Of a stretch of 64,000 nucleotides of DNA, positions 111 through 11,592 are shown one piece after another (within the stretch, counting starts at the first letter, position 1; each line of letters opens with the position of its first letter). The stretch is from Candidatus Woesearchaeota archaeon. Its GTDB lineage: Archaea; Nanobdellota; Nanobdellia; Pacearchaeales; GW2011-AR1. The DNA lies in NCBI GenBank assembly GCA_964639615.1, contig CAZXHH010000002.1:8290-72289 (forward strand), in the 5' to 3' direction. The position numbers and the translations under genes were made by a program. The notes under the pieces are model-generated. The model ran no database searches. It saw only the letters and a program-made list of their open reading frames with translations, and had not been told where the DNA came from.

Positions 111-1913
111 ATGGCAAAGGGTGATTATAAAATTGAAAATTTATATCTTGGAGGATATTCTACACTTGACCCAAACAAAGCAGGATATTCAAATTCATTT
201 ACAGGTTATAGAACTTCTGCTGGTTCATTAGGATTAACCACAGATCCAAGAACAGCAAATATGATTAAAGATGCATCTGCAAAATTATCTACAGGTGTAA
301 AACAGATTGAACTTACACTAGTCACTCCAGAATTAATGGATTCAATACCAAAACAACAATTTGGAGAGATGAGAGAACTTGCGCAACTTACAGGTTCAGA
401 AGTTTCAGTCCACGGACCAGTTATTGATACTACTGGTATGACTCAGCAAGGATATAGTGAATTAAACAGAGAATTATCAGAGAGAAAAATAACTCAAACA
501 CTATTAAAAAGCCATGAAATAAATCCAAATGGAAATATTCCTGTAACTTTCCATTCAGCTGAAGGAATCTTAAGTTCAGAATGGAAAACTCTTGGAGATG
601 TAGAAGGTAAGAATCAAAGACAAGCAAGAAGAATTATTGCTGTAGATAAAGAATCGGGGAGAATGATTCCATTAGATCATGAACAAAAATATTATCCTAA
701 GGATAGTTTAATTCCAGGTTCAGAAAATGAAGGCACAAAATATACTCCAGAACAAAATTTGCAAATAGCAAATACAAGTACGTGGGATGAAAAAATTTCT
801 CAATTATTTATAAATAAAGAAAGAGCAGATGAAATTCTTGAACAAAATAGACCTCTTATTCAACCATTATTAGCTGAATTAAATGAAAGACAAAAAAGAG
901 GAGAAGACCTTTACAGTGGTTTAACAGATACTCAAAAGATGGTTCTTAGAAGATATCAAGACGCTGAAAATTATCTTGGAGAGATAACTAAACAAGCAAA
1001 CGGAATCTTCAGTAAAGGATACCAATATGGAACAGAAGAACAAAAACAAGCGTTTAGGCATATTTCAGAGGTGTACAAAAACAGAATTAAGGAAGGAGGT
1101 ACAGACCCATTTCATCAATCAATGGCTGTACAAGAATTACTTAGCAATTTACAAAATCCTGCGCTAGCTCCAGAGATGTTTGTTCCAATTGAAAAATGGG
1201 CTTTAGATAAATCTTCAACAACCTTTAGTAACGCTGCGTTTAATGCATTTAAAACATTCAAAAATGATCCAAATAAAACTCCTATGCTTGTTATAGAAAA
1301 TCCTCCTGCAGGATTTGGATTATCAACGGGTGAAGATTTAAAAAATTTAGTTGTTGAGACAAGAGAAAAATTTGTTAAAAAAGCAGTTGAAAATGGTATT
1401 AGTGAAGGACAAGCACAAGATGCTGCAGAAAAATTAATAGGGGCTACTTGGGATGTCGGACATATTAATATGTTAAGAAGATTTGGATTTGGGGATAAAG
1501 ACATAGTAAAAGAAACTGAAAAAGTAGCACCTTATGTAAAGCATGTCCATCTTTCAGATAATTTTGGTTACGAACACACAGAACTTCCAATGGGAATGGG
1601 AAATGTACCTATGAAAGAAATTATGGCAAAACTTGGTGAAGAAGGATTCGAAGGGAAAAAAGTCATAGAAGCATCAACATGGTGGCAACATTTTCAAACT
1701 GCTCCAGTAAGGGAAACTCTTGAAGGATTGGGCTCTCCAATGTATATGAGTGGGAAGGGTCCGTATTGGAATCAATCTGGAGGTTTTGAACAAGGATATT
1801 TATCTGGATTCGGAATGATGCTTCCACAAAATAGCTATCAAACTTTTGGAGCAGGATTCTCACAACTCCCTGCTGAACTTGGTGGAAATAAACAAAATCA
1901 AAGAATGGAATAA
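111..1913 (+). CDS. Xylose-isomerase-like TIM-barrel (sugar phosphate isomerase/epimerase, AP-endonuclease-2 fold) protein with a ~250 aa insertion and a G/Q-rich tail
   Basis: The C-terminal half has the motifs WDVGHIN and HVHLSDN...ELPMGMGNVP, typical of this fold. The N-terminal part has the IELT strand and a VSVHGP (H-x-P) motif. The region between is a long K/E-rich insertion. Confidence 0.5.
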   Translation: MAKGDYKIENLYLGGYSTLDPNKAGYSNSFTGYRTSAGSLGLTTDPRTANMIKDASAKLSTGVKQIELTLVTPELMDSIPKQQFGEMRELAQLTGSEVSVHGPVIDTTGMTQQGYSELNRELSERKITQTLLKSHEINPNGNIPVTFHSAEGILSSEWKTLGDVEGKNQRQARRIIAVDKESGRMIPLDHEQKYYPKDSLIPGSENEGTKYTPEQNLQIANTSTWDEKISQLFINKERADEILEQNRPLIQPLLAELNERQKRGEDLYSGLTDTQKMVLRRYQDAENYLGEITKQANGIFSKGYQYGTEEQKQAFRHISEVYKNRIKEGGTDPFHQSMAVQELLSNLQNPALAPEMFVPIEKWALDKSSTTFSNAAFNAFKTFKNDPNKTPMLVIENPPAGFGLSTGEDLKNLVVETREKFVKKAVENGISEGQAQDAAEKLIGATWDVGHINMLRRFGFGDKDIVKETEKVAPYVKHVHLSDNFGYEHTELPMGMGNVPMKEIMAKLGEEGFEGKKVIEASTWWQHFQTAPVRETLEGLGSPMYMSGKGPYWNQSGGFEQGYLSGFGMMLPQNSYQTFGAGFSQLPAELGGNKQNQRME

Positions 1914-1915
1914 AA

Positions 1916-2749
1916 ATGCAACTAAAAAGAGAGAATAATCAAATAAAGAATGCAGTTCTTTCTGGAATTGAAGAAATTGTAAAAGAACATCCACGATTTG
2001 AAAATTTTCAGCCATTTTTAATTAAACACATTGATGAAAAAAAGTTACAGGATAAATATTCTGAACTGATAAGTGAAGCTCATAAAAAAAATATGACTCA
2101 AAAAGAAGGTGACGCGTATATTTCAAAAGGTATATCTGATTATGTTGCAAGTGGCTCAGTACTGGACGAAAAAGGAAAGCAAATTATACTAAAAAATGGC
2201 TTAGAAGAAAAATCAAAAAACATTTTTCAAAAATTATTAAATAAACCAAAATTTAATGGTGAAAAATATCTAGACAATACAATGGGAGCATTTCAGGATT
2301 TATATGCTCTATTTAAATCTGGAGATTATTCTGCAAGAATGCCTGAATTAACAAAATCTGTAACAAAATTATATGATTTAAATTTCCTAGACCCTGCAAT
2401 AGATGTGCTTAAGGCATACGGTTTAATTGATAAAAGAAAACATGAATTTCTTAAAACACAAGTTTACAAAAAAACAGGTGAAGAGTCACAAAAAGTTGTA
2501 GGAGGAATTGAAAAATATATTACAGCTGCTCCAGAAAAAATTGCAGCATCTGTCATAGGATTCTTTGGATTTGCATTAATTGTTTTAAATTTAACAATCA
2601 CAGGGAAAGTTGTTGGAGGAACTCTTTCAAGTCCATCAACAGGAATTATTGGATTAGCTATGCTATTTTTAGCCTTAGGAGTTTTAATTAAAAAGAAAAA
2701 AGAACCTTTAAAAACTAAAAGATATATACATAATAATAAAAGATGGTGA
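1916..2749 (+). CDS. Hypothetical protein with two C-terminal TM helices
   Basis: 277 aa ORF immediately after the previous stop. The C-terminus (FFGFALIVLNL..., IIGLAMLFLALGVLI) is hydrophobic and followed by a basic tail. Confidence 0.45.
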   Translation: MQLKRENNQIKNAVLSGIEEIVKEHPRFENFQPFLIKHIDEKKLQDKYSELISEAHKKNMTQKEGDAYISKGISDYVASGSVLDEKGKQIILKNGLEEKSKNIFQKLLNKPKFNGEKYLDNTMGAFQDLYALFKSGDYSARMPELTKSVTKLYDLNFLDPAIDVLKAYGLIDKRKHEFLKTQVYKKTGEESQKVVGGIEKYITAAPEKIAASVIGFFGFALIVLNLTITGKVVGGTLSSPSTGIIGLAMLFLALGVLIKKKKEPLKTKRYIHNNKRW

Positions 2750-3594
2750 AGAAAGCTCATAAAAAGAGTGTTGAAAAAAAGCAAGAAGTCTCAAAAGATG
2801 AAAGCAAAATTCCAACCTTAAATATTAAAACTGAAGAAGGAATTGCAATGGACTTTGCGGTTAAGGTTTATAAAAAATTTAACAAAATAGTAAAATCAAT
2901 AATTCTTTTTGGTTCAACAGCAAAGCAAACAGCAGTTTTAGGATCTGATGTAGATATAATGATTTTAATAGATGATGCTTCTATAAAATGGGATCAGGAA
3001 TTAATTGTTTGGTATAGAGAAGAACTTGAAAAAATAGTTGAATCTAGTCCATATAAAAAAGAATTGCATATTAATACAATAAAATTAACAACTTGGTGGG
3101 AAGATTTGATGAGGGGAGACCCTACAATATTAAATATAATAAGATACGGACAGGCTCTTATTGATTATGGTGGATTCTTTAACCCCTTAAAATATCTTTT
3201 AGTAGAAGGGAAGATACATTCTACACCAGAAGCAATTTATGCTTGCCTTCAGAGAGCACCAATGCATCTTGCAAGAAGTAAATCTGCAGAATTGGGGGCA
3301 ATTGAAGGAGTATATTGGACAATGGTAGATTCGGCTCATGCAGCATTAATTGCAGTTAATGCTCCTCCAGCTTCTCCAGAACACATTGCAGGAGAATTAA
3401 AAGTTAATTTTGTAAATTCGGGAAAATTAAAAGTAAAATATGTAGAATGGTTTAGAGAATTAAATTTGCTTCATAAACAAATTAATCACGGGGAAATAAG
3501 TGATTTGAAAGGAATTCAAATTGATGAATGGCAACAAAGAGCAGAAGAATTCTTAGAAACTATGGCTAAACTAGTAAATGACTCAATAAAATAA
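2743..3594 (+). CDS. Pol-beta-superfamily nucleotidyltransferase domain protein
   Basis: Carries the minimal NTase motif hFGSxxxxxxxxxSDVDImIL (ILFGSTAKQTAVLGSDVDIMILID). It overlaps the upstream gene by 7 nt, which suggests an operon. Confidence 0.55.
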   Translation: MVKKAHKKSVEKKQEVSKDESKIPTLNIKTEEGIAMDFAVKVYKKFNKIVKSIILFGSTAKQTAVLGSDVDIMILIDDASIKWDQELIVWYREELEKIVESSPYKKELHINTIKLTTWWEDLMRGDPTILNIIRYGQALIDYGGFFNPLKYLLVEGKIHSTPEAIYACLQRAPMHLARSKSAELGAIEGVYWTMVDSAHAALIAVNAPPASPEHIAGELKVNFVNSGKLKVKYVEWFRELNLLHKQINHGEISDLKGIQIDEWQQRAEEFLETMAKLVNDSIK

Positions 3595-3831
3595 TTATCT
3601 TAATTTATTAAGGTCCATTGTTCTTTTATAATCTAAAAATCTTTCAGTAAGTCTAAATGCTTTTTCATCAAGTTCTTGAGAATAATCTGCTTTTTCAATA
3701 TCTTTTAAGTCACCAGAATAAACTCTTCTATTTGATTGGATATATGGAGTTATAACTTTTCTAAATGGAATTTCATTTCTTATTGAAATTTCCATAATAC
3801 TTCCTAGATGATTAAATAAATTTTTTCCCAT
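3595..3831 (-). CDS. Hypothetical protein (78 aa)
   Basis: Last gene of a tightly packed five-gene minus-strand cluster. No recognisable motif. Confidence 0.4.
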   Translation of the reverse strand: MGKNLFNHLGSIMEISIRNEIPFRKVITPYIQSNRRVYSGDLKDIEKADYSQELDEKAFRLTERFLDYKRTMDLNKLR

Positions 3832-3880
3832 TTTATTCTTTTTAAAAATTTTTTAGTTGCCTTAATTGCAACTAATTTAA

Positions 3881-4177
3881 TTAGTTTTTCTGAATATCTT
3901 CTAAACTTATTGTTTTTTTTTCAAGAGCGTATTTAAGCACTTCTAGAGTCCTATCTTCTAATCTTGAATCATAAATCTTAAAGTTGTTATTGTTTTCATA
4001 TTCTAAATCATAAACTGTTTTGTTAACTCTACTATAAGCATCTAACATTGATTGAATAGAAACATTATTTTCTTTAGCAAGTGTTATCAAATCCTTTACA
4101 ATTGCCCCTTGTTTAGTTGAATAGCTTTCTGTCATTTTATTCTTTATCCTCCTTTCCATCAATTCTGCATCCATCAT
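3881..4177 (-). CDS. Hypothetical protein (98 aa)
   Basis: ORF in the minus-strand cluster. Its start overlaps the upstream ORF by 41 nt. Confidence 0.4.
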   Translation of the reverse strand: MMDAELMERRIKNKMTESYSTKQGAIVKDLITLAKENNVSIQSMLDAYSRVNKTVYDLEYENNNNFKIYDSRLEDRTLEVLKYALEKKTISLEDIQKN

Positions 4178-4322
4178 ATTCTGGATGTTTTTCCATTTCT
4201 TTGTTAAGATTATCTATTCCTGGAGAAATATATTTTGTATATAACTCTTTAGCAGGATAATACATAAGACTAAGACCTAATGCAATTTTTCCTGTCTCTT
4301 TTAAAATATCAGTTAAACTCAT
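4137..4322 (-). CDS. Hypothetical protein (61 aa)
   Basis: Short ORF in the cluster, overlapping its neighbour. Confidence 0.3.
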   Translation of the reverse strand: MSLTDILKETGKIALGLSLMYYPAKELYTKYISPGIDNLNKEMEKHPEYDGCRIDGKEDKE

Positions 4323-4337
4323 TCTATTTTACCTCTT

Positions 4338-4880
4338 TTACTCCTTTTTCTCCTTTTCAGCTAAAATAGATTCTAATCCTTTAGATATTTCTTTTTGTCT
4401 TAAATCAAGTATTTCCTTAACTACTCCATCTGTCTTCATAGTCATAACTGAGCCAATTATCATTCCAGCTTCTTTTTCATCCAACTGATGTACATACTTA
4501 TCTTTATAGCTTTCTTTAATAGCTCCTTTATATCCGTATTTAGATAAGTCTGAAACTTTAAGGCTTCCAATAGATTCAATTAATATCTTTGCAGAAGTAT
4601 TCTGTATGTAAGGGCTTGTAATTGCACCACTTTCATTTGCAAGTTGCGGATAAAATAATTGTTCGTAAATGCTTTGATCAGGTGTTTTCTTAATTATTTC
4701 ATCATAGAAAGACTGGCTAGCATCAGAAAGTTTACCATATTGTTCAAAAGTGATTAGTTTTGGAGCAGCATATTTCCAGAGAGCACTATCTAAATTCTTC
4801 ATAGCTATATCTCTTGCTTTCTCTTCTTTTGATTTTTCTTTAGGTTGCTCTTTTTCTGCCATTTTAATTATGTCCATCAT
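4338..4880 (-). CDS. Hypothetical protein (180 aa, K/E-rich termini)
   Basis: ORF in the cluster. It overlaps the upstream ORF by 17 nt. Confidence 0.45.
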   Translation of the reverse strand: MMDIIKMAEKEQPKEKSKEEKARDIAMKNLDSALWKYAAPKLITFEQYGKLSDASQSFYDEIIKKTPDQSIYEQLFYPQLANESGAITSPYIQNTSAKILIESIGSLKVSDLSKYGYKGAIKESYKDKYVHQLDEKEAGMIIGSVMTMKTDGVVKEILDLRQKEISKGLESILAEKEKKE

Positions 4881-5121
4881 CCATATGTTTAATCATAAAG
4901 TTTTGATAATCTATAAATGTCTTTCCATCAGCAAATCTAAAATAATTCATATCATCAGCATATCTTATAATATCTGCAATTTTATTAAATGTAAGTTCAT
5001 CAATTTTCTGAGCAGTTAAACCTTGCGTTAAATCATGCAAAGTTGCACCTACTTCTTCCTTGCTCATATCTAATTTAACTTTAGTCATTAGATTATGGTT
5101 TATTGATGTCTTGTTTTCCAT
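4864..5121 (-). CDS. Hypothetical protein (85 aa)
   Basis: First ORF of the minus-strand cluster. Confidence 0.4.
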   Translation of the reverse strand: MENKTSINHNLMTKVKLDMSKEEVGATLHDLTQGLTAQKIDELTFNKIADIIRYADDMNYFRFADGKTFIDYQNFMIKHMDDGHN

Positions 5122-5185
5122 ATTTTTTAGTATTCTCCAAACTTTTTAAATCTTTCTATTTTGTTACCATTTAGGAAAAGTGACA

Positions 5186-5213
5186 AAATGACACATTTAT
5201 TGTGTTGTCATTT
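5186..5213 (-). terminator. Hairpin (8 bp stem AAATGACA/TGTCATTT, 12 nt loop) spanning the L10e stop codon, followed by T-tracts on the minus strand
   Basis: The inverted repeat was read directly from the sequence. Its position at the 3' end of L10e suggests a terminator or regulatory site. Confidence 0.25.
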
Positions 5214-5739
5214 CGTATAAAACTCTTGTTGTACAAGGAAGCTTAGCCTTAATTTCCTTGAATGCTCCTCTTGCAACAGCAACTGCTTTAGGGGTAGAAA
5301 CAGCAATGAAAAATATAGGTGCTCCTGCTTTTAATATTGCAGATTTTCCAATACATTTACCAAAAGATAATTGCATTCCTGTCTGCATTCTATCAGCTCC
5401 TGCACCAGTAAGCATTTTGTTTTCTCTTTGAATATGATGTGGGAATGGAACAACTCTAAAAAAGTACTGTCCTGGAAGCGCTTTATCTAGAATTTTGTTA
5501 ATATACTGTCTACAAGCTTCAAGAGAATTATGTCTTATCTGAACATTTTCATTTGTAACTAAAGTCAATTTATGAGGGAATTTTCCTGATTCGTAAGTCT
5601 TTCCTTCACCCATACTAAACTTAACAATTTTCTGAGGAGGAACTACTTTAATATAAGCCCTATTTTTTCTCTTACTTACACGAGTATAAGGAACAACTAT
5701 TCTCTTTGAATATGCATTAGCTTTTCTAAGTGTTGCCAT
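5197..5739 (-). CDS. rpl10e: Ribosomal protein L10e (uL16)
   Basis: Full-length similarity to the archaeal/eukaryotic L10e family (RVVPFPHHIQRENKMLTGAGADRMQTGM...). Confidence 0.9.
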   Translation of the reverse strand: MATLRKANAYSKRIVVPYTRVSKRKNRAYIKVVPPQKIVKFSMGEGKTYESGKFPHKLTLVTNENVQIRHNSLEACRQYINKILDKALPGQYFFRVVPFPHHIQRENKMLTGAGADRMQTGMQLSFGKCIGKSAILKAGAPIFFIAVSTPKAVAVARGAFKEIKAKLPCTTRVLYEMTTQ

Positions 5740-5740
5740 T

Positions 5741-6001
5741 TTACTTTATATCTACCTTTGTTGTTATAGCTTGTCCTGGCAGTCCTCTTTCAAAAATAGC
5801 TCTAACAACTCCTTTATTTCCGTGAGTAGCAGCAATCTTTCCTGCAATTTCTTTTCCAGCAGGAGATTTCCAAATTACATTTTTACCAACAAATTTTTGA
5901 GCATCTTCTTTTTTAGAAACATTTTCAATTTCAATTAAAAAATGTCTTTCACTTATTGTTTTCTTTCCTCTTCTGAATTGTATAACTTTTCCAGCTGTCA
6001 T
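5741..6001 (-). CDS. rpl35ae: Ribosomal protein L35Ae
   Basis: 86 aa protein with the L35Ae pattern (GKVIQFRRGKKT...VGKNVIWKSPAGKEIAGKI...HGNKGVVRAIFERGLPGQA). Confidence 0.85.
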   Translation of the reverse strand: MTAGKVIQFRRGKKTISERHFLIEIENVSKKEDAQKFVGKNVIWKSPAGKEIAGKIAATHGNKGVVRAIFERGLPGQAITTKVDIK

Positions 6002-6089: not shown

Positions 6090-7187
6090 TTATTTCATCA
6101 AAACAACAATTTCTCTTCCTACAATTTGATCCTCTCTATATTCTTGTATTGGAAATCCATCTTCAACCTTTAGTCCTGTTTTGTCACAGATTTTCATCAA
6201 ATCTGCTGATACTCTTCCATTTCCTGTAGCTATTGAAGGTAAAGTAAGTACAATCTTTCCAGAAATGTTTCCTTTAAGATTTTTTAAACTATCAATCATA
6301 AGATTTTCAAAATTCTTTATCATTTTTTCAGCTTCTTTTCTATCTGGAAATTTTCTTAATGTGCTGCCAAAGTCTGGTTCACTAACCATAACATTAACTG
6401 GACTTATTTTTAATTTAGTTGAGTCTCCTATAATAAGCTTATAATTTTCACGAGCAAATTTAAACCATTCTAAATTCCTTCTTGCACCTTCCCAAGCTTC
6501 AGAATCTTTATCAATTCCTGTTGCTTTTATATCCATATTTAGTGCTTCAATCATAATTACTCCGATTCCACAAAAAGCATCAAGTAAAACTTCTCCCTCT
6601 TTAACTTCTGAAAGATTAATCATTATTTTAGCAAGTCTTGGAGAAATGCTTAAATCTTCTCTTCTTACAGGTTTCTCCATATCTCTCATTTCAAGAGCTT
6701 TATAATTGCATTTTTGAACTATTCTTCCAAATAGATTATTGAATACAAAAAACTCTTCATGAATTAAACCTGATGAAGGACCAACAACTGTTCCCCCAGA
6801 CTGAGTTTTAATCTGACTATCAAACTTTTTTTCAACTGCTCTTAGTCTTTCAGAGTGAAATCTTCTTCTAAGATAATCTGAAACCTTCTGTGTAGCAGGT
6901 GAAAAATCCCAAAGCAGATAATTAAAACTATTCTGAGTACCATAGTATAATGTCTTTTTATCAATATCTTTTACAGGTGAAATAACAATTCCTATGCCGA
7001 TTGTTCCTCCAAGCAAATCAATTGCTCCAGCATCTAAGGGATTTTCAAGTTCAAGCATTAATCCATTATTTACTCTCTCTTCATCCAGAATAACATTATC
7101 TGTCCTCTTTAGATAACTTCTTATCTCCATTCTTGACAAGTCAGGATTTCTCCCCAAAATAAATAAGTATTTCATGCAAAAAATCAT
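6090..7187 (-). CDS. Trm11-like tRNA (guanine-N2) methyltransferase (THUMP + SAM-MTase)
   Basis: The N-terminus KYLFILGRNPDLSRMEI resembles the Trm11 N-terminus. Motif I is LDAFCGIGV and the amino-MTase motif is SEPDFG (a DPPY-like motif). The real start is probably at MKYLF (7175). Confidence 0.6.
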   Translation of the reverse strand: MIFCMKYLFILGRNPDLSRMEIRSYLKRTDNVILDEERVNNGLMLELENPLDAGAIDLLGGTIGIGIVISPVKDIDKKTLYYGTQNSFNYLLWDFSPATQKVSDYLRRRFHSERLRAVEKKFDSQIKTQSGGTVVGPSSGLIHEEFFVFNNLFGRIVQKCNYKALEMRDMEKPVRREDLSISPRLAKIMINLSEVKEGEVLLDAFCGIGVIMIEALNMDIKATGIDKDSEAWEGARRNLEWFKFARENYKLIIGDSTKLKISPVNVMVSEPDFGSTLRKFPDRKEAEKMIKNFENLMIDSLKNLKGNISGKIVLTLPSIATGNGRVSADLMKICDKTGLKVEDGFPIQEYREDQIVGREIVVLMK

Positions 7188-7243: not shown

Positions 7244-9052
7244 TTACATCAAAACTTCAAACTCACCAAATTCTTTTTTAATAACCTCAAATACTTTTGA
7301 ATCAAATCTAACATCTTTTTTGTCCTTTTGGGCTTCAACTGCTTCAGAAACTTCATTCATATTTGATTCTTCAATCTTATTTGCAACCTTATAGACCTTA
7401 TTTTCTTTAAATAAAAACGATTTATCTGCTGAAATAAGCAACTCTCCTGAACTATCTTTAAATTTAAGGTTCATCTTTCCTTTTTCAAGAGAAACTAAAT
7501 CACATCTCTGTGAAAATTCTATAAGCTCGTTGATTAGCATACCCGCTTCTTTTCTTACATCATCAACTTTATGAGCAGTTAATTTCTTTTTCTTAAAATC
7601 AGCTTTTGCAGTAATCACATTTTTTAAGATTCTCAAATGCTGTTGTGTCATCTTTCCTTTTTTAACAAGTTCTTTCTCAAAATCTGCAACTAATTGTTCT
7701 ACTGATTTCTTCCCAAATATAGCATGAAGCAAATTTAACACATCAGAATAAATTTTTTCAATTGTGTTTCCTTGGGCTTTTTTATCAATTTGTATTCTAA
7801 GTTCTTTCAATCTCTTAAGATAATCTTCAGTTTCCTTAAGCAAAGTGTCAATTTCTGCACCAGAGATTTCTTTTATTTTCTCGTGTTCATAATCTCTCCA
7901 AGTATTAATCACTTTTTCCATAAAGTCAACGTATTTCTTTTCAATCATCTTTGTATCTAAAAATTCTTTTTTGAAATCTCTAACTAATTCTTTTTTAGCA
8001 TTTGGAGGAGGACATCCATTAAGCATCAACAAAGCTTGTGCAGGAGTTGTAACTCCCCAAAATATATTTACAAAAATTTCAGATAATAGTGTTCTCTTGC
8101 TTCTTGGAATTATACCATCTCCCATACTCATAAACATATCAATTGCTTCAGGTGAAGGCTTAAGCTTACCCATTTTAAGAAGAGCTTTCCAAGGCATGAA
8201 TGTTCCTCTATCATAAATTGGAACTCCATCTCTGATAAAAGTAAACATAACAGGATGAGCATCTTTAACTGCTTCCCAGAAATCTGTTAAAAGATAAATT
8301 TGAGGTTCAAGTTTATTATGAACTCCTGCAAGGGCAGATGCTTCACCAACATACTGATAAATAATACTTCTAAGTCTTTCTTTCAATTCAAGTCTTGGCA
8401 TTCTTTTAACATCAGTATCATTAATTATTACAAAAACATCAACATCAGAATCTTTAGTAGCTTCTCCTCTAATTAAACTTCCACCTAAAACATATGAAAC
8501 AACATATTTTTCAAATTTCTGCAACACAAGAGATTTATGAATTTCTGCAACTCTCATAGCACCTAAAATTCCCTTATCATGCAATGGATAAGACATTGCC
8601 ATTGCACTATACAATTCAAATTTCTGATCCATGCAGATTTCCCAAACTTCAGAAGGTGTTTTCAAATGTATCCAGATATCTTCTTTTGATTTTTCAATCT
8701 GTGCAACAATTTCTTTTTTAATTTCAGGAATCTTCTTGTCTTTTTCATCAGGAACTATAATATTAAGATGAACCTTTTTCAAGAGTTTATCAGTCTGTTC
8801 TTTTGTAAGATTGTCTGTCTCTTCCTCAATAAATTCTTTAATTGATTGCGGAGGAAGTATACTTATTGCTTCAATGAACGGATACTTCTTTACAACAAAA
8901 GTTTTAAGTTTTTCAAGCTCTTTTTTTATTTTGTCTCCTTTTTCTTTTTCAGGAGGAGCTTCTGGCATAGGTATTTTTTTAGAAGTATAATTTTTTTCTA
9001 AATTCATTTCAGGAATATTTGTGTCTTCAGCCATAGTAACAAAAATACCCAA
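7244..9052 (-). CDS. Nucleotidyltransferase-domain protein (602 aa; Pol-beta/class-I CCA-like NTase core)
   Basis: The GSxxxGxxxxxSDVDVFV motif (LGGSLIRGEATKDSDVDVFVIIND) lies near residue 200 and is followed by ~380 aa. A K/E-rich N-terminal extension precedes the motif. Confidence 0.55.
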   Translation of the reverse strand: MGIFVTMAEDTNIPEMNLEKNYTSKKIPMPEAPPEKEKGDKIKKELEKLKTFVVKKYPFIEAISILPPQSIKEFIEEETDNLTKEQTDKLLKKVHLNIIVPDEKDKKIPEIKKEIVAQIEKSKEDIWIHLKTPSEVWEICMDQKFELYSAMAMSYPLHDKGILGAMRVAEIHKSLVLQKFEKYVVSYVLGGSLIRGEATKDSDVDVFVIINDTDVKRMPRLELKERLRSIIYQYVGEASALAGVHNKLEPQIYLLTDFWEAVKDAHPVMFTFIRDGVPIYDRGTFMPWKALLKMGKLKPSPEAIDMFMSMGDGIIPRSKRTLLSEIFVNIFWGVTTPAQALLMLNGCPPPNAKKELVRDFKKEFLDTKMIEKKYVDFMEKVINTWRDYEHEKIKEISGAEIDTLLKETEDYLKRLKELRIQIDKKAQGNTIEKIYSDVLNLLHAIFGKKSVEQLVADFEKELVKKGKMTQQHLRILKNVITAKADFKKKKLTAHKVDDVRKEAGMLINELIEFSQRCDLVSLEKGKMNLKFKDSSGELLISADKSFLFKENKVYKVANKIEESNMNEVSEAVEAQKDKKDVRFDSKVFEVIKKEFGEFEVLM

Positions 9053-9420: not shown

Positions 9421-11547
9421 ATGGGACTAGAAACTATTCTTAAAACAATTAAAAAATCTTTTATATTTCCTTCAATCTTTTTTTGCTCTCCTCTTTTTTC
9501 TCAAGATATTCAGCATGATATTCCTCATATTGCAGATTCTATTATAAATTCTGCTTGGAATTATTATGATGCTAATTTGCTTGATTCTTCATTTGTGAAT
9601 TTTGAAAAAGCATATAATTTTTCATCTGAAAATAATAATTTAAATGGTCAGATAAGATCACTTTTGGGATTATCTGAAATTCATGTGCGAAAAGGAGAGT
9701 TTCTATTGGCGTCAGATAAACAACGAATTCTTTTAGAAAAAAGCCTTCTCCAAGGAGATTCTTTACGTATTGCTGATGCAAATTTAAACTTGGGTTTTTC
9801 ATTATATAAATTGGATTCAATTGAAGATGCTCTTAAGAACACTATGTTTGCTCTTAATATGTATGAACATTTACAGGATAAAAAGGGAATGCATCAAGCT
9901 TATACCAATCTCGCAATGTTTATGGCTAATTTTGCTCCTGGCAAGGCTAGAGATTACATACGTCAAGATTCTACTCTTGTTTCGGATTTAATTGCAAATT
10001 CTTCTGGTAGTGAACGTGATTACTTTCAAAGTAAATTTATTTTAGCAGTTGAAAACATTGGTTATACCTTTCATTCCGAAGGATTACTTGATATTGCAAA
10101 GCAATATTATGTTAGTGCAGATTCTCTTGCAAAAGCATGGAATAGAGAATTTAATTTAACTTCCATTTATAATAAATTAGGAAGTCTATCCCAATCTTCT
10201 GGTGATAAAGAAGAAGCATTGAATTATTATCAACAAGCTTGCGATATCGCAAAAAAATATAATGATGATGTAGGTTTAGCATTTACTTTGCTTAATTGGG
10301 CATCTTTGGATTTACTCAACAAAAATACTTCTGAAGCTTCAAAAAAGTTGACTTCTGCAAAAGATTTATTTGGTAACTCTGATGATTCTTTTTTTGAGCG
10401 CGAGTATGCAAATAATAATTATCAATTGTTCGAACAGAAGGGTGATTATAAGAATGCTCTTTTTTATTATCAAAAATTTAATGATTTAAAATTTGAAAAT
10501 CTCTCAAAGAAAAATTCTGCTCTTGTAGGTTTTATAGAAGCAGAATATCAAACTAAAAAGAAAGAAGAAGAAAATATTCGATTAAAACGAGATTTTGAAA
10601 CAAAAAATCGTGAATTAAAACAAAAGAACAAGCTTTTTTTAACAGCATCCGGTGCAGCGTTATCTGTTTCTGCTCTTTTAATGCTTACAGGTGCAATGTA
10701 TCGTAAGAAAAAGCGTTTAAGTAATATGTTAAGTGAGAAAAATAAAGAAATGCATGCTTTGAATAATATCCTTGAACTTCAAAATTCTGAATTAGAACAA
10801 GCTAATAAAGAGATTGATCAAAGTTTAAAATATGCTAGTTATCAGCAACGTGCTATGGCTCCATCTTCTGAGCAATTAGATTCTTTATTGGGACCTCATT
10901 TTTTATTTCAAAAGCCTAAACAAATTGTATCTGGAGATTTTTTATTTGCAAGAAATCATTCGGATTTTGTTTATTTTGGAGTTTGTGATGGAACAGGTCA
11001 TGGGGTTGGAGGAGCATTTACTGCCATATTATCTTCATCATTTTTACATAATTCTTTGATGAAAAAAAATTGCTCTTTACCTAGTGAAATGTTAACCTAT
11101 GCCAGAGATGAATTAATAAATAATTCTTCTTCCAGTGTTGTTGATTCTGGGTTTGATGGAGTAATTTTTAGATATGATAAAAAAAATAATGAGCTCATTT
11201 ATTCTTCTGCCAATAATCCTTTTTTTATTCATAGAGATGGTTCATTGATTATTCATGGAAAAAATCATGTTTCTGTTTCCCCTTGTGATACAAAAGGTGT
11301 TTTTGTTGACCACAAAGTTGATATTATGCCTGGAGATATGTTATACACTTTTTCTGATGGATATAAAGATCAATTTGGTGGACCTTATAACAAAACCTTT
11401 TCAACAAAGCAGTTTAAGGATTTATTAACTAATATTGGGACTAGTTCTCTTGAGGACCAATTAGCTAAATTAGAAAGTTCATTCTCTTCCTGGAAAAAGG
11501 ATGGGGAACAAACTGATGATATTACTGTTTTGGGCGTAAGATTTTAA
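9421..11547 (+). CDS. TPR-repeat protein with TM helix and C-terminal PP2C/SpoIIE-type Ser/Thr phosphatase domain
   Basis: Signal-like N-terminus, TPR-like repeats (NYYQQA..., ALFYYQKF...), a TM helix (LTASGAALSVSALLMLTGAMY) and a coiled coil. The PPM motifs are GVCDGTGHGVGGA, FSDGY and ITVLGVRF. Confidence 0.7.
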   Translation: MGLETILKTIKKSFIFPSIFFCSPLFSQDIQHDIPHIADSIINSAWNYYDANLLDSSFVNFEKAYNFSSENNNLNGQIRSLLGLSEIHVRKGEFLLASDKQRILLEKSLLQGDSLRIADANLNLGFSLYKLDSIEDALKNTMFALNMYEHLQDKKGMHQAYTNLAMFMANFAPGKARDYIRQDSTLVSDLIANSSGSERDYFQSKFILAVENIGYTFHSEGLLDIAKQYYVSADSLAKAWNREFNLTSIYNKLGSLSQSSGDKEEALNYYQQACDIAKKYNDDVGLAFTLLNWASLDLLNKNTSEASKKLTSAKDLFGNSDDSFFEREYANNNYQLFEQKGDYKNALFYYQKFNDLKFENLSKKNSALVGFIEAEYQTKKKEEENIRLKRDFETKNRELKQKNKLFLTASGAALSVSALLMLTGAMYRKKKRLSNMLSEKNKEMHALNNILELQNSELEQANKEIDQSLKYASYQQRAMAPSSEQLDSLLGPHFLFQKPKQIVSGDFLFARNHSDFVYFGVCDGTGHGVGGAFTAILSSSFLHNSLMKKNCSLPSEMLTYARDELINNSSSSVVDSGFDGVIFRYDKKNNELIYSSANNPFFIHRDGSLIIHGKNHVSVSPCDTKGVFVDHKVDIMPGDMLYTFSDGYKDQFGGPYNKTFSTKQFKDLLTNIGTSSLEDQLAKLESSFSSWKKDGEQTDDITVLGVRF

Positions 11548-11570: not shown

Positions 11571-11592
11571 TAATAAATTTTGTTTTAATTAT

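Follow-up and report, generated by a model that had tools for sequence, protein, structure and literature searches.

The minus strand of a 64 kb stretch of DNA from a Woesearchaeota-type DPANN archaeon (hereafter the window) carries, in the interval 3595-5121, a compact cluster of five small open reading frames (ORF1 to ORF5). An earlier note had singled out this interval as a unit of overlapping genes with no recognizable motif between two nucleotidyltransferase (NTase) genes, and had proposed a toxin-antitoxin or defence module, or a structural complex, as its likely nature. Our comparison with related loci points tentatively to a lineage-specific core operon centred on ORF2, which belongs to a conserved and undescribed family of predicted all-helical proteins. 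Two of the remaining ORFs, ORF4 and ORF5, share a three-helix domain.

Gene content and start codons

Our ORF listing reproduced the five consecutive minus-strand ORFs of the earlier note, at 4864-5121 (85 aa), 4338-4880 (180 aa), 4137-4322 (61 aa), 3881-4177 (98 aa) and 3595-3831 (78 aa). All five are real genes, because their coverage of the interval is far above that of shuffled sequences and their codon usage is gene-like. On this one strand, five ORFs of 60 aa or more account for 95.8% of the interval. The chance model, which consisted of 2000 first-order Markov resamplings of the interval, gave a mean coverage of 1.0%, a maximum of 30.5% and at most two ORFs. A codon-usage log-odds model trained on 26 long window genes gives in-frame scores of +0.27 to +0.48 bits per codon for the five ORFs, compared with +0.40 to +0.59 for known genes of the window. 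Of the five alternative frames, four score clearly negative and one is near zero (at most +0.08).

The overlaps of 17 and 41 nt described earlier exist only in the longest-ORF coordinates. Public gene calls from four or five independent assemblies give products of 85, 174, 61, 84 and 66 aa with no overlaps. The 180 aa form of ORF2 has no record among public assemblies, whereas the 174 aa product, which begins MAEKE at 4862, is recorded, and the same start is used by 17 of 17 ORF2 homologues. ORF4 is on record as an 84 aa protein (P0019) beginning MTESY at 4135, and its homologues P0021 and P0022 share this start point. Judged by these gene calls and homologue starts, the lengths of 180 and 98 aa, both overlaps and the reported 'MMD' starts are artefacts of extending each frame to the first ATG. 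With the starts corrected, a 1 nt spacer separates stop and start codons at the ORF1/ORF2 junction and again at the ORF3/ORF4 junction (TAAaATG in each case), and the junction between the L35Ae and uL16 genes directly upstream is the same heptamer. ORF1 and ORF2, and likewise ORF3 and ORF4, are thus translationally coupled via TAAaATG, and these junctions bear out the earlier description of a compact, co-directional, coupled unit.

The start of ORF5 is ambiguous. Gene callers place it at ATG 3795, giving 66 aa, as opposed to the longest form of 78 aa from ATG 3831. The 13 nt sequence AAAGAATAAAATG is repeated at the ORF4 start codon and at ATG 3831, spanning each of them, and the alignment of the domain family shared by ORF4 and ORF5 (family A, described below) takes in the 12 extra N-terminal residues of the 78 aa form. 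Because the repeat duplicates the ORF4 start and the alignment includes these residues, the comparison favours the 78 aa form. The repeat at the two starts is consistent with a local tandem duplication.

The features of the cluster are listed in Table 1. Each of the five products is hydrophilic, and none has a predicted transmembrane segment. The stop codons of ORF5 and of the convergent NTase gene abut, 0 nt apart.

Table 1 Features of the five-gene cluster in window coordinates, with isoelectric points (pI) of the products
Feature	Position	Strand	Context and evidence
Inverted repeat TTGTCAC-N12-GTAACAA with flanking T-runs	5161..5186	-	Between uL16 stop and promoter
Predicted promoter, B recognition element (BRE) and TATA box, TAGAAAGA TTTAAAAA	5143..5158	-	21 nt 5' of ORF1 ATG
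ORF1, 85 aa, pI 5.4, orphan, first gene of operon	4864..5121	-	Codon score +0.31; stop coupled to ORF2 start
ORF2, 174 aa, predicted all-alpha, pI 6.0, conserved anchor gene	4338..4862	-	Homologues, synteny, AlphaFold2 model
ORF3, 61 aa, pI 5.1, orphan	4137..4322	-	Codon score +0.48; stop coupled to ORF4 start
ORF4, 84 aa, pI 5.1, one family A domain	3881..4135	-	Family alignments, phmmer
8-bp hairpin, T5 run and TTTTTAAAAAG	3853..3875	-	Terminator-like scan; weak evidence
ORF5, 78 aa (66 aa from ATG 3795), pI 9.3, second family A paralogue	3595..3831	-	phmmer, AlphaFold2 model, start duplication

Promoter and other expression signals

The 75 nt spacer that follows the uL16 stop codon is strikingly conserved across the aligned loci. 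The only near-invariant block of its 12-locus alignment is (C)GAAAGATTTAWAWA, which is present in 12 of 12 loci and lies exactly 21 nt from the first ATG, ungapped throughout, whichever ORF comes first (ORF1 in the window, ORF2 in most relatives). The TATA box of the window, TTTAAAAA, occupies 5143-5150, 21 nt from the ATG at 5121, with a purine-rich BRE immediately upstream. Archaeal TATA boxes are centred around position -26 from the transcription start. Since this distance coincides here with a start at the ATG, a leaderless mRNA is predicted, and the operon would have its own promoter and a separate leaderless transcript starting at the ORF1 ATG. The arrangement is like that of other leaderless archaeal BRE/TATA operons, ribosomal-protein operons among them, in the TATA box ~26 nt before the first ATG, the BRE and the internal coupling with 1 nt spacing. 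However, this likeness concerns expression alone and not function, and the products are unrelated to ribosomal proteins or other known proteins.

Just upstream of the BRE/TATA element lies an inverted repeat with the consensus TTTGTYAC-N12-GTAACAAA across loci, again with T-runs. It occurs just once in the window, against an expectation of 0.04 matches. The repeat is clear in eight of the 12 loci aligned (the window, L006, L009, L012, L013, L015, L016 and L019), where sequence as well as pairing is conserved, and is degraded or partial in the four most distant (L022, L025, L028 and L030). C/T variation in the left arm produces a C.A mismatch on the operon strand and a G.U pair on the opposite strand. 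The element could serve a dimeric regulator as its operator, terminate the ribosomal-protein operon, do both, or form an antisense RNA hairpin. A sub-threshold Rfam match of the palindrome to CRISPR-DR27 (28.6 vs 35 bits) was rejected; the repeat is present in a single copy, with no array.

Within the cluster, ORF3 is preceded by a Shine-Dalgarno-like GAGGT in the 15 nt spacer after ORF2, and a GGAGG lies 13-17 nt upstream of the ORF4 start. The ORF4-ORF5 spacer measures 49 nt, and its 8-bp hairpin, T5 run and TATA-like TTTTTAAAAAG could act as an attenuator or terminator with a possible internal promoter. We give this hairpin little weight because a single-nucleotide polymorphism (SNP) at 3872 in strain variant L001 disrupts the stem.

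The ORF2 family, its small partners and their neighbourhood

A word-indexed search retrieved 18 relatives of ORF2 with 47-65% identity. An exhaustive profile search returned 180 representatives of 50%-identity clusters at E <= 1e-3, 82 of them at E <= 1e-10, and nearly all were 170-200 aa long and matched over their full length. The window protein has no match in Pfam or NCBIfam, no consistent family emerged across 139 members (106 + 33), and single-sequence and profile searches against PDB sequences were both empty. A literature search gave nothing specific to this family or to the three-helix family of ORF4 and ORF5. On these comparisons, the ORF2 family is conserved and undescribed. No second copy of ORF2 or of the three-helix domain occurs elsewhere in the window.

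The AlphaFold2 model of ORF2, built from the 18-sequence alignment, is all-helical with seven helices (predicted local distance difference test score, pLDDT, 70.5; predicted TM-score, pTM, 0.59). A Foldseek search with this model gave no match in the PDB (best E 0.36, TM ~0.2) or in BFVD. The family has a conserved motif, PQL..EGGAITSPYLQ.TS, part of which has low model confidence. Its invariant residues are W, Y, P, G, F, Q, L, A, T, S, I and K. Because these include no His, Asp, Glu, Arg or Cys, we infer that ORF2 is a binding or scaffold protein and not an enzyme. The termini are rich in Lys and Glu, and the window protein ends in EKEKKE. A GLE..L motif is one of the few nearly invariant features across the whole family. 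In distant members (P0016, P0076, P0116, P0135, P0145, P0158 and P0159), the C-terminus consists of GLE..L, a charged tail and a final ...AA (for example RAA, QAA or KAA). A further distant member, P0054, is 236 aa long with a coiled-coil N-terminal extension and is encoded at L033 6001-6711 (GCA_975968385.1, 203 kb contig), in a long co-directional operon with many TPR proteins, two PP-binding (acyl carrier protein-like) proteins and one GXGXG-motif protein.

Loci with ORF2 relatives come from metagenome-assembled genomes labelled Candidatus Woesearchaeota or Nanobdellota, with one labelled Diapherotrites and one Omnitrophota. The last of these, L017 (DATJPO010000029.1, Candidatus Omnitrophota bacterium), has the archaeal ORF2 - NTase - TIM-barrel arrangement, and the contig is probably mis-binned. 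In the window, the genes upstream on the same strand encode a UPF0020 methyltransferase (6090-7187), L35Ae (5741-6001) and uL16/L10e (rpl10e, 5197-5739). In most loci with enough flanking sequence, L35Ae and uL16 are followed by zero to two small ORFs, ORF2, zero to five small ORFs and a convergent NTase gene of ~285-300 aa. Next, in the majority of the longer loci but not in L025, comes an AP_endonuc_2-type TIM-barrel protein of ~600-640 aa, and a ~270-290 aa tail-anchored protein often sits between the NTase and TIM-barrel genes. The same order is found in at least 17 non-redundant loci and is kept at 35% (P0040/L028), 27% (P0060/L030) and 23% (P0165/L031) identity to the window ORF2. In L031, a UDG gene and a 165 aa ORF lie between uL16 and ORF2, and the ORF2-NTase-TIM-barrel link is retained. 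Searches of IMG/VR and of phage records found no relatives, and no tRNA gene lies within 6 kb (the nearest is at 11592). The locus is a vertically inherited core block and not a mobile island. As DPANN genomes are tiny, genes whose position stays fixed even between deeply diverged lineages are likely to matter.

Small-gene insertion also affects the ribosomal protein pair itself. Uncharacterized ORFs lie between L35Ae and uL16 in L016, L023, L024 and L026 (108 aa) and in L025 (55 aa), so such insertion is not limited to the region after ORF2.

An all-against-all comparison of 31 small ORFs from 17 loci revealed that ORF4 and ORF5 share one ~65 aa three-helix domain, here named family A, with the motif L..h.-hA..N.h....V...Y..FN ... 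Y.P.L.-KA..LT..Y. Members match each other in phmmer with E-values of 1e-5 to 1e-14; ORF4 gives 1e-5 to 3.5e-10 against the members in L009, L015, L019 and L027, and ORF5 1e-7 to 1e-12 against family A members. ORF4 and ORF5 are, on this evidence, tandem paralogues. Family A is present as a single copy in L009, L015, L019, L020 and L027 and as a fused tandem of 156-163 aa in L006, L014, L016, L023/24/26 and P0020. A word-based homologue search with ORF4 alone retrieved only ORF4 itself, Pfam and NCBIfam searches with ten family A members gave no consistent family, and there was no match to PDB sequences.

The AlphaFold2 model of ORF5 (pLDDT 78.6, pTM 0.69) consists of three helices (2-19, 23-41 and 52-77). 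Foldseek found nothing significant in the PDB (best E 2.6). The three long antiparallel helices recall three-helix-bundle adaptor domains, with a TM-score of 0.53 to 3x38_D. The best neighbours, none of them significant, are the Sld7 C-terminal domain (3x38_D) and the SigE N-terminal domain (8b3z_D), at E >= 2.6 and 9-15% identity. As modelled, the likeness would be one of fold class only, implying neither homology nor shared function. We also considered ORF4 and ORF5 as helix-turn-helix (HTH) regulators and rejected the idea: helices of 18, 19 and 26 residues do not form a compact HTH, there was no significant Foldseek match, and the best result of an HTH search was E 0.08 to HTH_Tnp_ISL3 in one of ten family A members.

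ORF1 and ORF3 behave differently from this family. ORF1 is on record in five contigs from four or five samples and has no relative among the 31 small ORFs; the slot before ORF2 holds small ORFs unrelated to it in L012, L015 and L020. No relatives of ORF3 were found, and it does not match the N-termini of the longer family A members either. Profiles of the other small-ORF families (B, C and D) matched neither protein. Both are species-level orphans. Because the family A gene follows ORF2 directly in L009 and L015, with no ORF3 between, ORF3 is a lineage-specific insertion. Overall, the gap between ORF2 and the NTase gene contains zero to five small ORFs depending on lineage, drawn from four small families and orphans. 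GC content is lowest in the ORF4-ORF5 region, at 24-25% compared with 29-33% in the flanks.

The locus L001 (SRR6837554) shows mosaic strain divergence from the window when compared over 3400-5800. Ten SNPs fall in the final ~70 nt of the uL16 segment covered by the comparison, one across the ~1.4 kb of ORF1-ORF4, and seven in ORF5 (four synonymous and three non-synonymous). An insertion of ~100 nt lies between ORF5 and the NTase stop in L001. Such a mosaic suggests that recombination breakpoints lie at the cluster edges.

The convergent neighbours suggest a possible link to the membrane. The window encodes an uncharacterized 277 aa protein (1916-2749, plus strand) with a C-terminal two-helix anchor (LN.TG.VIGG ... 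LRPLKKSFKK). The ORF2 paralogues P0009 and P0025 (239-245 aa) end in a two-helix anchor of the same kind, ...LN.TGAVIGGDS...LRPLKKSFKK. A profile hidden Markov model of the 277 aa family matches such a paralogue with E 3.5e-32 over residues 138-239, a match that takes in the anchor together with the helix before it and the G[LI]E motif. Two unrelated soluble domains, those of the 277 aa family and of the ORF2 paralogues, thus have one tail anchor in common. In L014, an anchored ORF2 paralogue (4328-5047) takes the slot of the 277 aa gene, and a soluble ORF2 copy follows uL16. The last helix and the G[LI]E motif are common to ORF2 of the window and the 277 aa family, and the complete anchor is found in P0009 and P0025; in contrast, the window protein carries a tail rich in Lys and Glu instead of the anchor. 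With hhalign, family A showed no similarity to ORF2, and its comparison with the 277 aa family (E 0.018, 2.6% probability) was rejected as a relationship. The neighbouring 600 aa protein (111-1913, plus strand) has an AP_endonuc_2 (xylose-isomerase-like TIM-barrel) C-terminal half and a helical insertion of ~200 aa, without assignment to a specific family; in nearly all loci it accompanies the 283 aa NTase as a constant partner.

Possible function of the cluster

Pfam NTP_transf_2 genes do lie on either side of the cluster, as the earlier note stated, at 2743-3594 (plus strand, 283 aa) and 7244-9052 (minus strand, 602 aa). The two proteins are paralogous: they are 28% identical over a 246 aa stretch (E 1e-24) spanning the NTase domain and a helical C-terminal domain. 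Both are full-length two-domain proteins whose place in the gene order is constant throughout the clade. Neither can be counted as an operon partner, because the first is convergent with the cluster and the second lies ~2 kb upstream behind three housekeeping genes, those for the methyltransferase, L35Ae and uL16. The motif LQRAP.H.ARSK, conserved in the 283 aa family, is of the form Rx3H and not the canonical Rx4-6H of HEPN proteins.

Our preferred explanation, which falls somewhat short of probable, is a lineage-specific core operon encoding an ORF2-centred helical complex and not a toxin-antitoxin or defence system. A non-enzymatic complex with an ORF2 core and exchangeable small partners is our best guess, and a weakly supported one. 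According to this model, the BRE/TATA promoter just downstream of rpl10e would drive a leaderless mRNA from the ORF1 ATG, and the products would assemble into a small cytoplasmic hetero-oligomer. ORF2 would form its constant core, and the three-helix proteins would serve as exchangeable, dosage-coupled accessory or adaptor subunits. ORF1, ORF3, ORF4 and ORF5 are all small, soluble, fast-evolving and helical. As ORF2 paralogues carry the anchor of the 277 aa neighbour and sit in its slot, the complex may be placed at the membrane, where it would probably act at the inner face, together with the convergent NTase of ~290 aa, the TIM-barrel protein of ~600 aa and the tail-anchored 277 aa protein. 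A bolder extension would make ORF2 the core of an undescribed Woesearchaeota-type DPANN complex in which ORF4 and ORF5, and perhaps ORF1 and ORF3, tune or target the NTase/TIM-barrel/tail-anchored set in a new membrane-proximal nucleotidyl-transfer or envelope-modification pathway of episymbiotic archaea. We consider this extension decidedly unlikely.

Several observations weigh against the helical-complex explanation. A conserved convergent neighbourhood is weaker functional evidence than co-transcription. Family A is missing from the distant ORF2 loci L022, L025, L028, L030 and L031, and therefore ORF2 does not need it; no fusion protein of ORF2 and family A was found. ORF1 and ORF3, having no homologues, could be recent and inconsequential genes. 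The ORF2 model reaches only medium confidence, with a pLDDT below 50 in the most conserved motif of the protein (residues 70-82). The hhalign comparison gave no global homology between the soluble domains of ORF2 and the 277 aa family. Finally, the TPR-rich operon around P0054 is entirely unlike the ribosomal-protein setting of the other loci.

What speaks for the earlier proposal, that the small ORFs form a toxin-antitoxin or anti-virus module with the flanking NTases, is a resemblance to MNT-HEPN (MntA-HepT, type VII) systems, in which minimal NTP_transf_2 NTases likewise lie near small helical proteins, together with the small size, fast evolution and lack of assigned function of the proteins themselves. 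The NTases match the MntA model NF047752 weakly (25.5 and 24.2 bits), far under the cutoff of 60, and the only PADLOC matches (PDC-S09, PDC-M05A and cyclase models) are to the generic NTase domains of these neighbours. The five ORFs had no match in Pfam, NCBIfam, PHROGs or PADLOC-DB v2 beyond sub-threshold noise, in agreement with the motif-free description given earlier. None contains a conserved HEPN-type Rx4-6H motif, and the invariant columns of ORF2 have neither Arg nor His. Unlike those of MNT-HEPN modules, the NTases here are two-domain syntenic paralogues outside the operon, and the distribution of the locus is vertical and not sporadic. Given the absence of PADLOC, phage and viral matches and a syntenic core block kept to 23-35% ORF2 identity, a toxin-antitoxin or defence role is not supported, and we regard it as very improbable. 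The suspicion that ORF3 and ORF4 are one gene split by a frameshift or assembly error, to which the 41 nt overlap of the longest ORFs in different frames would lend weight, is barely credible. ORF4 homologues of 75-84 aa are complete and begin at the position of ATG 4135, ORF3 matches nothing, and GGAGG followed by TAAaATG is a canonical coupled restart. In independent assemblies the junction is 100% identical in L002, L003 and L004 have one mismatch each, whose position is not mapped, and L001 has none at the junction. Both the toxin-antitoxin/defence and the frameshift readings are effectively excluded.

Two further alternatives, each of which we hold to be unlikely, concern ORF2 more directly. 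ORF2, with or without the small partners, could be a lineage-specific ribosome- or translation-associated factor acting on ribosomes or tRNA. It is co-directional with uL16 and comes after it, directly or with one or two small genes between, in most loci with upstream sequence, its surroundings are RNA-related (the UPF0020 tRNA/rRNA-type methyltransferase, L35Ae, uL16 and two NTases), and its termini are rich in Lys and Glu. However, the operon has a conserved predicted promoter of its own and is separated from uL16 by the inverted repeat with T-runs, the near-neutral ORF2 and three acidic small proteins are unlike ribosomal proteins (pI 10.4 for uL16), and no PDB sequence or fold match to ribosomal or translation proteins was found. 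In L031, moreover, it is the link to uL16 that is interrupted and the link to the NTase that is kept. Alternatively, only ORF2 may be important, with the ORF2-NTase gap and the slot after the promoter being permissive sites for the turnover of small orphan genes of little or no function. The varying and unrelated small ORFs in the gap, the lack of homologues of ORF1 and ORF3, the low GC content around ORF4-ORF5 and the concentration of strain variation in and downstream of ORF5, including the ~100 nt indel, would all fit such turnover. Against it, family A occurs in at least ten loci spanning ~50-65% ORF2 identity, and its duplication or fusion on more than one occasion suggests selection; all four small ORFs look gene-like in their codon usage and coupling signals. 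These genomes are compact and the gap is 0 nt in some relatives, so it is not simply a tolerated spacer.

The structural complex that the earlier note had offered as an alternative is weakly favoured. The Foldseek check was run on the ORF2 and ORF5 models and gave no fold match better than E 0.36. As regards conservation of the cluster among relatives, ORF2 and the ORF4/ORF5 domain recur, and ORF1 and ORF3 do not. The locus adds a new, unannotated case to a well-known pattern, in which fast-evolving small partners accompany a lineage-restricted conserved hypothetical gene. It offers no pointer to a new mechanism yet, and the finding is of modest interest. What is new here is an all-helical family of ~180 clusters at 50% identity that is syntenic with rpl10e and the NTase/TIM-barrel pair, a three-helix domain family that has been repeatedly duplicated, fused and lost beside ORF2, and a sharply conserved, predicted leaderless promoter with an adjacent palindrome. 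For curators, this means corrected gene starts, no frameshifted gene and no entry for the locus among defence or toxin-antitoxin islands. The cluster also provides a concrete target for interaction prediction and for metatranscriptome and metaproteome work.

Further along the window, a gene at 9421-11547 (plus strand) encodes a 708 aa protein in which TPR-like repeats, a transmembrane segment and a C-terminal PP2C/SpoIIE-like motif (GVCDGTGHG ... DDITVLGV) can be read from the translation alone. Its architecture looks bacterial, although the contig is archaeal.

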